Assembly: GCF_003334255.1 (NCBI RefSeq)
Contig: NZ_QOWU01000079.1
Length of the DNA stretch: 14,611 bases
Source of the DNA: Escherichia coli
Lineage (GTDB): Bacteria; Pseudomonadota; Gammaproteobacteria; Enterobacterales; Enterobacteriaceae
Direction: 5' to 3' (one strand)
Positions 4,344 to 6,038 of this stretch are shown here, in pieces. Under the pieces are notes generated by a model. That model was given only the letters and a program-made list of their open reading frames with translations, made no database searches and was not told where the DNA came from. The translations under genes and the position numbers were made by a program. Positions within the stretch are counted from its first letter, which is position 1. Each line of letters starts with the position of its first letter.

Positions 4344-4893
4344 GCATCATTGGAAAGTGGAAAAACAACCTGAGTGGTACGTGAAAGCTGTCAGAAAAAC
4401 TATCGCGGCATTGCCTGGGGGTTACGCTGAAGCTGCTGACTGGCTGGATGTAACAGAGAACGCTTTATTCAACCGCCTTCGTGCAGATGGCGATCAGATT
4501 TTCCCGCTGGGATGGGCAATGGTTTTACAGCGCGCGGCTGGCACTCACTACATTGCGGATGCTGTCGCACAATCTGCTGGTGGGGTGTTCGTATCGCTTC
4601 CTGAAATTGAGGAAGTAGAGAACGCCGATATAAACCAGCGCCTGCTGGAAGTCATCGAACAGATCGGGAATTACTCAAGGCAGATTCGTTCGGCAATCGA
4701 AGATGGGGTCGTGGAGCCACACGAGCAGACAGCAATTAATGATGAGTTGTATCTGTCAATTTCGAAGCTCCAGGAGCATGCAGCACTGGTCTACAAAATC
4801 TTTTGCGCTCCAGAAAAGAGTGACGCCCGCGAGTGTGCAGCTCCGGGCGTCGTGGCGTCGATTGCTTCTGGTTGTGGAGAAACTAACGCATGA
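4336..4893 (+). CDS. CII-like regulatory protein (YmfL / CP76 CII family, from memory)
   Basis: 185 aa with a GTG start at 4336 and GGAGG at 4324-4328. It overlaps the cro-like 3' end by 8 nt. The sequence (MGKHHWKVEKQPEWYVKAVRKTIAALPGGYAEAADWLDVTENALFNRL...) is what I recall for e14 YmfL-type proteins in the cII position. Confidence 0.65.
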   Translation: MGKHHWKVEKQPEWYVKAVRKTIAALPGGYAEAADWLDVTENALFNRLRADGDQIFPLGWAMVLQRAAGTHYIADAVAQSAGGVFVSLPEIEEVENADINQRLLEVIEQIGNYSRQIRSAIEDGVVEPHEQTAINDELYLSISKLQEHAALVYKIFCAPEKSDARECAAPGVVASIASGCGETNA

Positions 4894-5038
4894 ACAGTTT
4901 AACGGCAAATAACCGTTTGTCGCAACAGCTGGTGGTCAGCGTCGCTGAACACCTGTTGTTACGGCATGAATGCAGATTACCAAATCACCTGGCTGTAAGT
5001 AACCACAGAGAACTTTACCTGACTGTGGGGGGCGAGTT

Positions 5039-5218
5039 GTGCAGGAACTTAACCGCTGGTTTCGTGACGGAAGAGGACTTTATGTTCATGTTATTCGTTG
5101 GGAGCCAGAAACACAGCGCGTTATCTATCTTCGCAAAGACTACCAGCATGAGTGCTTTAGTCCTTTGTGGAAATTCAGGCGTGATTTTGTTGAGTGTGAA
5201 GGACCACCAGCACATTGA
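5039..5218 (+). CDS. small DUF4222-like protein (59 aa) in an alternative frame of the 382-aa track ORF
   Basis: Not in the track because it is under 60 aa. GTG 5039 is preceded by GGGGGG (5026-5032), and TGA lies at 5216-5218. The translation is VQELNRWFRDGRGLYVHVIRWEPETQRVIYLRKDYQHECFSPLWKFRRDFVECEGPPAH. It aligns without gaps to the 74-aa ORF at 6035-6259 (WYTTPAGHVLRVSLVDRECQKVICEPLGRNYRVSMPLIAFCSGKMFKR), with about 10 of 40 identities: W, G, V, E, Q, V, I, P, L, F. Confidence 0.45.
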   Translation: MQELNRWFRDGRGLYVHVIRWEPETQRVIYLRKDYQHECFSPLWKFRRDFVECEGPPAH

Positions 5219-5287
5219 TTCTGCCATTCCGGGACGTTACACTGTTCAGGCACCTTATAAAGCGGGTGTCGGGATTGGCGTCCTGGA

Positions 5288-5484
5288 ATTGCATACGGCG
5301 ACAATTGGCGCGTTAGCGTCTTTTTTGTTGCTACAACTCAGCTATACCCAAATTATGGTGGGCTGGGTGGGGGCACCGAAAGGTGCGCCGGTTTCCGTAT
5401 GCGCCGGTTACGCCAACCCTGCTCAGTTCACCACCAGCGAAATTGGCGTTTCCGGTGGTGGAAGTTATCCATTGCATACGGAGG
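5288..5484 (+). ncRNA. candidate cis/trans antisense-RNA control region (C4 / P4-CI / IsrK-like) upstream of rha
   Basis: Loop element CCGTATGC (5395-5402) is complementary to GCATACGG at 5291-5298 and at 5474-5481. The second copy overlaps the rha SD GGAGG (5480-5484). Element CGCCAA (5411-5416) is complementary to TTGGCG at 5305-5310 and 5443-5448. Supporting hairpins are GCACC-GAAA-GGTGC (5373-5386), CCGG/CCGG (5387-5408) and CACCACC/GGTGGTG (5429-5460). The RNA ends are not determined. Confidence 0.5.
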
Positions 5485-5492
5485 CTGCCATC

Positions 5493-6038
5493 ATGGCTAC
5501 GATCCCAACCCTCACTCAACCTGAAATTGCCATCGTTGATGGTCAGGCTGTTACTTCATCCCTGGCTGTTGCCAACTTCTTCTCCAAACGTCATGACGAT
5601 GTACTGAAAAAGATCCGCACGCTTGAATGTTCCGCATCATTCACTGCCCGCAATTTTTCGGTGAGTGATTACACCGATTGCACAGGCCGCAAACTACCTT
5701 GCTATCAAATAACCCGCGACGGCTTTGCGTTTCTTGCTATGGGTTTCACGGGTAAACGTGCTGCCCAGTTCAAAGAGGCATACATCAATGCCTTTAACCA
5801 GATGGAAAAACTGCTTTCAAAGCCATCCACGCTGAGCGATGCCGCAGATAACGCCAGCGTGCTTTACTCCCACCTGTCGGTAATCCACAAGGTCTGGCTG
5901 CAGCAGCTTTATCCCATGTTGGCAAAAGCCGAATCCCCGCTGGCTGTAAGTCTGTATGACCGCATCAACGACGCGGCGCTACTGGCCAGTCTCATAAATT
6001 TGTCGCTGAACCCTTCAGAGGTAAGGGGGCGCAAATGA
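5493..6038 (+). CDS. rha: Rha-family phage regulatory protein
   Basis: ATG 5493 has a strong SD (GGAGG 5480-5484, 8-nt spacing). MATIPTLTQPEIAIVDGQAVTSSLAVANFFSKRHDDVLKKIR...YQITRDGFAFLAMGFTGKRAAQFKEAYINAFNQME matches the Phage_pRha pattern I recall. The same frame stays open upstream to ATG 4890 (the 382-aa track ORF), which I treat as doubtful. Confidence 0.8.
   Translation: MATIPTLTQPEIAIVDGQAVTSSLAVANFFSKRHDDVLKKIRTLECSASFTARNFSVSDYTDCTGRKLPCYQITRDGFAFLAMGFTGKRAAQFKEAYINAFNQMEKLLSKPSTLSDAADNASVLYSHLSVIHKVWLQQLYPMLAKAESPLAVSLYDRINDAALLASLINLSLNPSEVRGRK

Follow-up and report, generated by a model that had tools for sequence, protein, structure and literature searches.

The DNA considered here is a stretch of 14,611 nt from Escherichia coli (contig NZ_QOWU01000079.1 of assembly GCF_003334255.1), referred to below as the window, and the element in question is an open reading frame (ORF) of 382 codons that lies among early genes of a prophage. 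An earlier note, made from the sequence alone, had described this ORF as composite or overprinted, with an ORF resembling DUF4222 embedded in another frame of its N-terminal part and with a Rha domain at its C-terminal end. The ORF is present, and its ATG at 4890 shares, as described there, a 4-nt overlap (ATGA) with the stop codon of the cII-like gene ymfL. Start/stop overlaps of 4 nt join the early genes of the window into a chain (at 4890, 6035, 6256, 6552 and 7532), which would break without this ORF. Among near-identical genomes, the NCBI Prokaryotic Genome Annotation Pipeline (PGAP) gave the long ORF three different starts and recorded the same DNA as a long Rha protein, as an 'ash family protein' or as a DUF4222 pseudogene. 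We conclude with high confidence that the segment consists of an IsrK-C4 immunity cassette and a DUF4222 gene (Table 1); the RNA genes isrK and C4 are absent from all those PGAP records.

The isrK-like small RNA (sRNA) ends in a terminator (5307-5326), in which a terminator scan found a terminator-like site at 5307-5320 followed by a T-run. The C4-type antisense RNA comprises a loop (b', 5392-5402), a single-stranded element (a', 5410-5416) and an acceptor-like stem ending in CACCACCA at 5429-5436. Its fold was retained among 17 distinct sequences, that of P4 included, with 98.7% of cells paired and 12 pairs changed on both sides; none of 500 shuffles was as good, and slid partners were paired in 35-49%. 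Folding of a 281-nt stretch gave a z value of -5.4 against shuffles, the C4 loop pairing with the region of the Shine-Dalgarno (SD) sequence of rha. In other loci (L285 34277-34329; L287, L288, L292 and L293) the Rfam families isrK (RF01394, no clan) and c4-a1b1 (RF03163, clan CL00128) overlap on the same element, and they appear to name one RNA twice.

The recognition elements of C4 have targets on both of its sides. The loop TTTCCGTATGC is complementary to TTGCATACGG in isrK (5289-5298) and also to GCATACGGAGG at 5474-5484, which contains the SD sequence of rha, and the single-stranded ACGCCAA is complementary to TTGGCGT at 5275 and 5443. Across the 14.6-kb window, GCATACGG has two occurrences (at 5291 and 5474) and its complement has one (at 5395). 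When C4 was scored against the flanking sequence by an RNAduplex-type method, the result was long interrupted duplexes without meaning, and exact motif matches together with co-variation of alleles were used instead. The comparative sample comprised 160 loci anchored on YmfL or Rha and 120 stretches collected by the promoter/isrK 5' pattern, all of these anchors being independent of the frame of the long ORF (frame 0). In this sample the isrK copy, the C4 complement and the leader/SD copy co-varied three ways, in at least 10 alleles of the b-element (for example GCATACGG, GTCAACGG, CGCACATG, CACCAAAG, GATCAAGG and GTTATCGG) and at least 4 of the a-element. The stretch 5250-5484 follows the logic of a1b1/c4/a2b2 in P1 and of seqA/CI/seqC in P4.

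The transcription start predicted near 5250 coincides with the 5' end of isrK, 6 nt past a putative internal promoter, and PisrK of Gifsy-1 occupies the same position (PMC4825925). A conserved mobile block begins here as well, since its left boundary was found at about 5214 in 8 different contexts, one base before TTGATT-17-TACACT. The right edge of the cassette lies at about 5517: it carries its own SD sequence, ATG and the first 8-9 or so codons of rha (MATIPTLTQ), and relatives 98-99% identical up to that point have a 77-aa ORF replacing rha (L002, L003). The genes joined in frame beyond about 5517 are rha, the 77-aa ORF and the kil gene of P4, and the same SD-ATG-MAT start is found at P4 kil (the stretch corresponding to 5493-5517 being L004 8365-8340). 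Tandem isrK-C4-cargo cassettes with different specificity alleles occur in L001, L005, L190, L198, L203, L227 and L234, the second cassette being entered via an ATG that overlaps the stop codon of the first cargo gene (at the junction of MIRNIFKLFTNR with HQHIDSAI, or of MIRYLN with IDSAI). The earlier note's observation that Rha is recognisable only in the C-terminal part of the long ORF, behind a ribosome-binding site and ATG of its own, is confirmed: Phage_pRha matches residues 222-307 of the 382-aa product (1.7e-30), Rha is recognised from about residue 213-222, and GGAGG (5480-5484) lies 8 nt upstream of ATG 5493.

A genuine DUF4222 gene occupies 5039-5218; it shows purifying selection when read in its own frame and is overprinted on frame 0. 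The 59-codon ORF pointed out previously is present, and its peptide matches Pfam DUF4222 (E 1.1e-13, 51 bits, cutoff 27) and phrog_1343 (E 4e-36). The ORF was unbroken in 73 of 73 unique versions of the region, and its variable columns fell mostly on the third position of its own codons in two data sets (4/4/18 and 2/3/14 for first, second and third positions; p 9e-4 for the second set). These third-position changes are second-position changes in frame 0. It is the intact frame, the third-position bias and the GGGGGG run upstream of the GTG that establish the gene. In frame 0 this run reads G GGG GGC (5027-5033), the form of a -1 slippery heptamer, and one relative (L263) has seven G residues, which fuse the frame of ATG 4890 to DUF4222 and would encode 109 aa. 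Such a variant might reflect an error of sequencing or a mutation, or it might hint at frameshifting. The 149 nt between the ymfL stop and the DUF4222 start (4890-5038) showed no coding signal in any frame (variable columns 8/8/4 and 10/11/4, not significant), no family match and no PHROG match.

Table 1. Features of the segment and of the adjoining genes (positions are those of the window)
Feature	Position	Strand	Evidence and remarks
ymfL, cII-like regulator	4336-4893	+	Pfam Phage_CP76; NCBIfam YmfL equivalog, 170 bits
Long frame-0 ORF	4890-6038	+	382 codons, ATG start; ends in Rha coding sequence; residues 1-89 YmfM-like
GGGGGG run, probable SD sequence of DUF4222	5027-5032	+	6 nt upstream of GTG 5039; read from sequence
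DUF4222 gene	5039-5218	+	59 codons, GTG to TGA, +2 frame, overprinted on frame 0
Putative internal promoter	5215-5243	+	-35 TTGATT 5215-5220, 17-nt spacer, -10 TACACT 5238-5243; read by eye
isrK-like sRNA, seqA / a1-b1 equivalent	5250-5326	+	Rfam RF01394, 58.9 bits (gathering 50), full length
Decoy C4 targets inside isrK	a1 5274-5281; b1 5289-5298	+	Complementarity and allele co-variation
C4-type antisense RNA, P4 CI / P1 c4 equivalent	5351-5438	+	Rfam RF01695, 80.7 bits (gathering 45), model 1-87/87
AUG at C4 5' end	5355-5357	+	Frame 0; joined in frame with rha, whose ATG 5493 lies 46 codons further on; equivalent of first start codon of Gifsy-1 orf45
Downstream C4 targets	5442-5484	+	a2 5442-5449; b2 5472-5484, including rha SD sequence GGAGG 5480-5484
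rha, 181 aa, candidate RNA-controlled short form	5493-6038	+	Pfam Phage_pRha 5.2e-31, 107.5 bits vs 29.9; TIGR02681 103 bits vs 45.95
74-aa gene, phrog_1153, possible distant DUF4222 relative	6035-6259	+	ATGA-coupled to rha; third-position bias 9/7/25

The small gene that follows rha had been proposed as a paralogue of the embedded DUF4222-like ORF, on the strength of a gap-free alignment at about 25% identity. The alignment is real but weak (BLASTP, 10/42 identities, 24%, E 0.037 as a single comparison), and the DUF4222 peptide also cross-matches phrog_1153, the family of the 6035-6259 product, weakly (E 0.0023); that product had no match to Pfam DUF4222 at E values up to 1. The DUF4222 gene itself stands, and its paralogy with the 6035-6259 gene, as judged from the sequences, is unproven. 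Further downstream, the window contains a full-length match to the gammaproteobacterial sRNA STnc100 (RF02076, 143 bits, gathering 47) at 12336-12541 on the + strand.

Frame 0 upstream of ATG 5493 was shown to be without constraint at the amino-acid level, yet kept stop-free and linked to the stop codon of the preceding gene. Its variable columns were evenly distributed over the three codon positions in 5250-5492 (50/51/47, p 0.92) and numbered 8/8/4 in 4894-5038, while the positive controls ymfL (27/15/83), rha (57/53/124) and the 74-aa gene (9/7/25) showed the third-position bias of coding sequence. Over 5219-5492, frame 0 was stop-free in 34 of 35 distinct alleles, against approximately 16-17 distinct stop positions in each other frame, and indels among these alleles were of 3 nt; over 5229-5528 it was open in 124 of 128 unique sequences. 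In at least 8 different upstream contexts frame 0 can be followed back to an ATG, and in 6 of these the ATG is adjacent to, or overlaps with, the stop codon of the ORF before it. The ORFs that precede it comprise two ymfL types, rha in the tandem cassettes, and ORFs of 389, 69, 235 and 112 aa. The open length of frame 0 exceeds chance, as the earlier note had argued, and of the two possibilities left there the comparative data favour genuine overprinting over a frame that merely happens to be open. Two other parts of that account had to be changed. The N-terminal part of frame 0, thought to be featureless, matches Pfam Phage_ASH at residues 117-212 (63.3 bits, cutoff 26) and resembles E. coli K-12 YmfM at residues 1-89 (33% identity, E 2e-8), and a separate short cII-coupled ORF does not exist, the coupling to the cII-like gene being that of the long frame. 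The RNA leader, supposed to be either incidentally open or additionally translated, contains the two Rfam RNA genes, isrK and C4; that it is also translated is suggested by the comparisons below, and we hold this to be slightly the better supposition.

The closest parallel to the arrangement was found in the satellite P4, in which Rfam matches of isrK-like and C4-like type occur in the same order as in the window. In P4, the stop codon of vis (orf88, an AlpA homologue) overlaps ATG 8767 as ATGA, in the manner of ymfL and ATG 4890, and from there a 199-codon frame passes through PLE, the isrK-like seqA, CI and seqC and continues as kil without a change of frame. The start of kil, GGAGGCTGCCATCATGGCTAC, differs little from that of rha in the window, the P4 a-site allele TTCTCAC / GTGAGAA also occurs in relatives of the window locus, and Phage_ASH matches the corresponding stretch in both elements. 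According to the account of the eta/kil pair given in PMC10111431 (citing Forti et al. 1999), eta contains a constitutive promoter, the transcript of which ends early and yields CI, itself encoded within the eta gene; Kil is translated upon occasional read-through; and full-length Eta is translated only when transcription comes from the late promoter upstream. Eta is coupled to the alpA homologue, and by being translated it prevents termination. The two systems differ in several respects. Unlike the satellite P4, the window element is an e14-like/lambdoid prophage, with the cassette between ymfL and the replication genes; its cargo is Rha (181 aa) and not Kil (65 aa), the spacing of isrK and C4 is 24 nt as against 107 nt in P4, and only the window has the additional DUF4222 gene overprinted on the long frame. 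Control in P4 has been described as mainly by Rho-dependent termination.

A spacing of approximately 22-27 nt between isrK and C4 was seen in Gifsy-1 and 8 other phages, which range from Stx phages to APSE-1 and a phage of Actinobacillus. The isrK-orf45-anrP region of Gifsy-1 is the same cassette, in which C4 is the processed STnc1160 species and b2 lies on the SD sequence of an antirepressor-type gene. The AUGG of C4 provides the start of orf45, whose register is that of frame 0 in the window. Translation of orf45 was shown experimentally in Gifsy-1, and according to its authors orf45 is conserved in nucleotides and not in amino acids, which matches the pattern in the window (PMC4825925). There are differences here as well: orf45 ends in a TGA that overlaps the anrP ATG in another frame, and upstream of its AUG the frame closes after 1 codon, whereas in the window the orf45-like frame is fused to rha and open back to 4890. 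Furthermore, the Gifsy-1 cassette adjoins antQ and lies outside the early-right operon.

Phages P1 and P7, compared by description, resemble the window in having duplicated targets upstream and downstream of the antisense RNA, the downstream pair lying where ribosomes bind to the leading gene of an antirepressor operon, and their allele-specific recognition underlies heteroimmunity. Their immI operon, attributed to work by Citron and Schuster in 1990, reportedly has the order a1 b1 - c4 - a2 b2 - icd - ant, with an antisense RNA that has two recognition elements. The window is without an icd-like gene between C4 and cargo, and a 77-aa ORF replaces rha in the relative L002 and in phage Ayreon. 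Barquist et al. 2013 had already noted that IsrK is equivalent to seqA and C4 to CI, and that lambdoid prophages have the system; the authors of the IsrK work discussed these points too. An IsrK-C4 immunity cassette with nesting of the eta/kil type is thus of a known kind, and the DUF4222/ymfM overprint and the many specificity alleles are less familiar.

That overprint is also present in the e14 element of E. coli K-12. There, ymfM, which is homologous to residues 1-89 of frame 0, shares with the long ORF the ATGA overlap on ymfL and overlaps a 59-codon DUF4222 ORF in another frame; no isrK/C4 cassette was present in e14 when checked, and ymfM is only 112 codons long, ending shortly ahead of the replication gene. 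The DUF4222 ORF of e14 is unannotated (L294 3502-3681; NC_000913.3 1204001-1204180), and ymfM encodes the cell-division inhibitor SfiC. Among 10 e14-type variants, variation in the overlap was distributed 1/0/9 by DUF4222 codon position and 0/9/1 by ymfM position, so that DUF4222 is the selected frame there. Neither frameshift nor start-codon controls are mentioned in the text of the ymfM paper, and the product behind the filamentation may need re-testing.

Taken together, the locus is likely to be an IsrK-C4 cassette that controls a Rha-family gene from inside a long frame of the P4 eta/kil kind, with DUF4222 overprinted upstream. Because ORF 4890-6038 has the sequence-level features of the P4 eta/kil design, the internal promoter among them being putative, we lean, by analogy, towards its being translated as a long form comparable to Eta, the 181-aa Rha being the short form under RNA control. 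P4, P1/P7 and Gifsy-1 are the homologous systems from which the following mechanism is drawn. Transcripts that start near 5250, at the weak internal promoter, would have no start codon upstream, and most would stop at the terminator of isrK, producing the sRNA. RNA that reads through would be processed to C4, which could pair with a2/b2, block initiation at ATG 5493 and keep the 181-aa Rha off, unless the decoy sites of IsrK titrate C4 or refold the leader and so turn Rha on. Transcripts arriving from the early promoter upstream would be translated from ATG 4890, coupled to ymfL, by ribosomes that would cross DUF4222, the terminator, C4 and the masked SD sequence. As in P4 Eta, translation of the long frame may suppress termination and bypass the RNA block, giving the long form of Rha and expression of the coupled downstream replication genes. 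In its broader form, the proposal would extend the eta principle, in a more extreme version, to ordinary lambdoid and e14-like prophages, in which a stop-free corridor coupled to a cII-like gene would be selected for translation and not for its peptide, and would hold along its length a separately selected gene in another frame (DUF4222), a promoter, an sRNA and its terminator, an antisense RNA and the target of that RNA; we consider the chances of this to be even.

Another possible explanation is that the long ORF is an over-extended gene call, in which only DUF4222, the two RNAs and the 181-aa Rha are functional and frame 0 upstream of 5493 (or of AUG 5355) is never translated. Its openness would then derive from G+C-rich RNA stems, from the in-phase duplication of the targets and from a stop-poor alternative frame of DUF4222. 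Several observations agree with this explanation and weigh against translation of the long frame: codon-position variation in frame 0 is flat; DUF4222 paralogs without a cassette keep the same alternative frame open for 52 codons; and a1/b1 share their codon phase with a2/b2, which could have kept isrK free of stops incidentally. In 10 of 11 diverse cassettes, whatever their context, no stop interrupts C4 in the frame of its AUG, which suggests a stop-poor RNA sequence, and the three PGAP starts in near-identical genomes point the same way. Against the eta-like reading it also counts that the putative internal promoter has only 8 of 12 consensus positions, too few for the threshold of the promoter scan, which did not report it; 4 of the 128 unique relatives have frame-0 stops in 4890-5038, and 3-4 have frameshifts. 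Finally, distant cassettes (those of Gifsy-1, HUN/2013, phiV10, APSE-1 and others) have no open frame upstream, it being closed 1-20 codons before the C4 AUG, nor is theirs fused to cargo. Selection to keep frame 0 open across DUF4222 is unsupported, since the cassette-less paralogs make openness there largely intrinsic. A universal corridor was likewise rejected, as the frame is closed 1-20 codons before the C4 AUG in 7 of the 11 diverse cassettes; the long corridor is thus a feature of a subfamily and not a rule. What speaks against an over-extended call is the count of 0 versus approximately 16-17 distinct stop positions among the alleles, in which the highly variable spacer and leader are included, the fact that every indel among the alleles is a multiple of 3, and the return of the frame to an ATG at all of the at least 8 independent upstream junctions, usually at the stop codon of the preceding gene. 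The ATGA-coupled layout of P4 is, moreover, identical, and its long form, eta, has been reported as translated and functional. On balance we regard the over-extended call as a rather unlikely alternative to an eta-like long form.

The match to Phage_ASH bears on a further reading, in which the long product is a genuine three-domain protein (YmfM-like, Ash and Rha), Ash being folded with a function of its own and the Rfam matches incidental. Positions 1-106 of the Phage_ASH profile span isrK, C4, the leader and the first dozen codons of Rha, and the purifying selection on amino acids expected of a folded Ash domain was not seen over 5250-5492. As the profile covers the RNA elements, we read the 'Ash domain' as a protein-level image of the RNA switch. 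In P4 (L004 8168-8584), PF10554 matches residues 22-85 of the obsolete 'cI protein' ORF, which is the CI-RNA stretch of eta, and leaves epsilon (L004 7888-8175), a PF25738 protein, unmatched. A folded Ash domain under amino-acid selection is unsupported, yet the P4 frame that contains the Ash stretch, eta, has been reported as translated. Ash has been counted as a protein domain of unknown function in surveys of Rha/Bro networks (PMC8951638, PMC10111431), and a survey of P4-like satellites used PF10554 as a marker of epsilon (PMC8628076); since PF10554 matches the eta/CI stretch and epsilon belongs to PF25738, that survey probably detected the immunity region and not epsilon. A three-domain protein, to which the 63-bit Phage_ASH match, the similarity of residues 1-89 to the cell-division inhibitor YmfM and the usage of those Rha/Bro surveys would point, is very improbable given the lack of third-position bias over the Ash region (50/51/47), substitutions that preserve RNA pairing (12 compensated pairs) and the three-way antisense complementarity, changes in the DUF4222 overlap that fall on second positions of frame 0, and a PF10554 match in P4 to the CI-RNA stretch, whose immunity function is carried by RNA according to the P4 literature.

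The gene controlled by the cassette is of antirepressor type and lies just upstream of the replication genes. The many specificity alleles of the cassette (at least 10 by 4), sometimes two in tandem, are raw material for heteroimmunity and for cross-talk of co-resident prophages and satellites. If the eta-like reading of the long frame is true, ribosomes of the early operon would override both the terminator and the antisense block, whereas transcripts from the internal promoter would obey both, and the Ash domain of many Rha/Bro-type proteins would be the protein-level shadow of an RNA switch. The locus is also a clean natural case in which to ask if a long ORF can be selected for being translated as such, while its peptide is not conserved.

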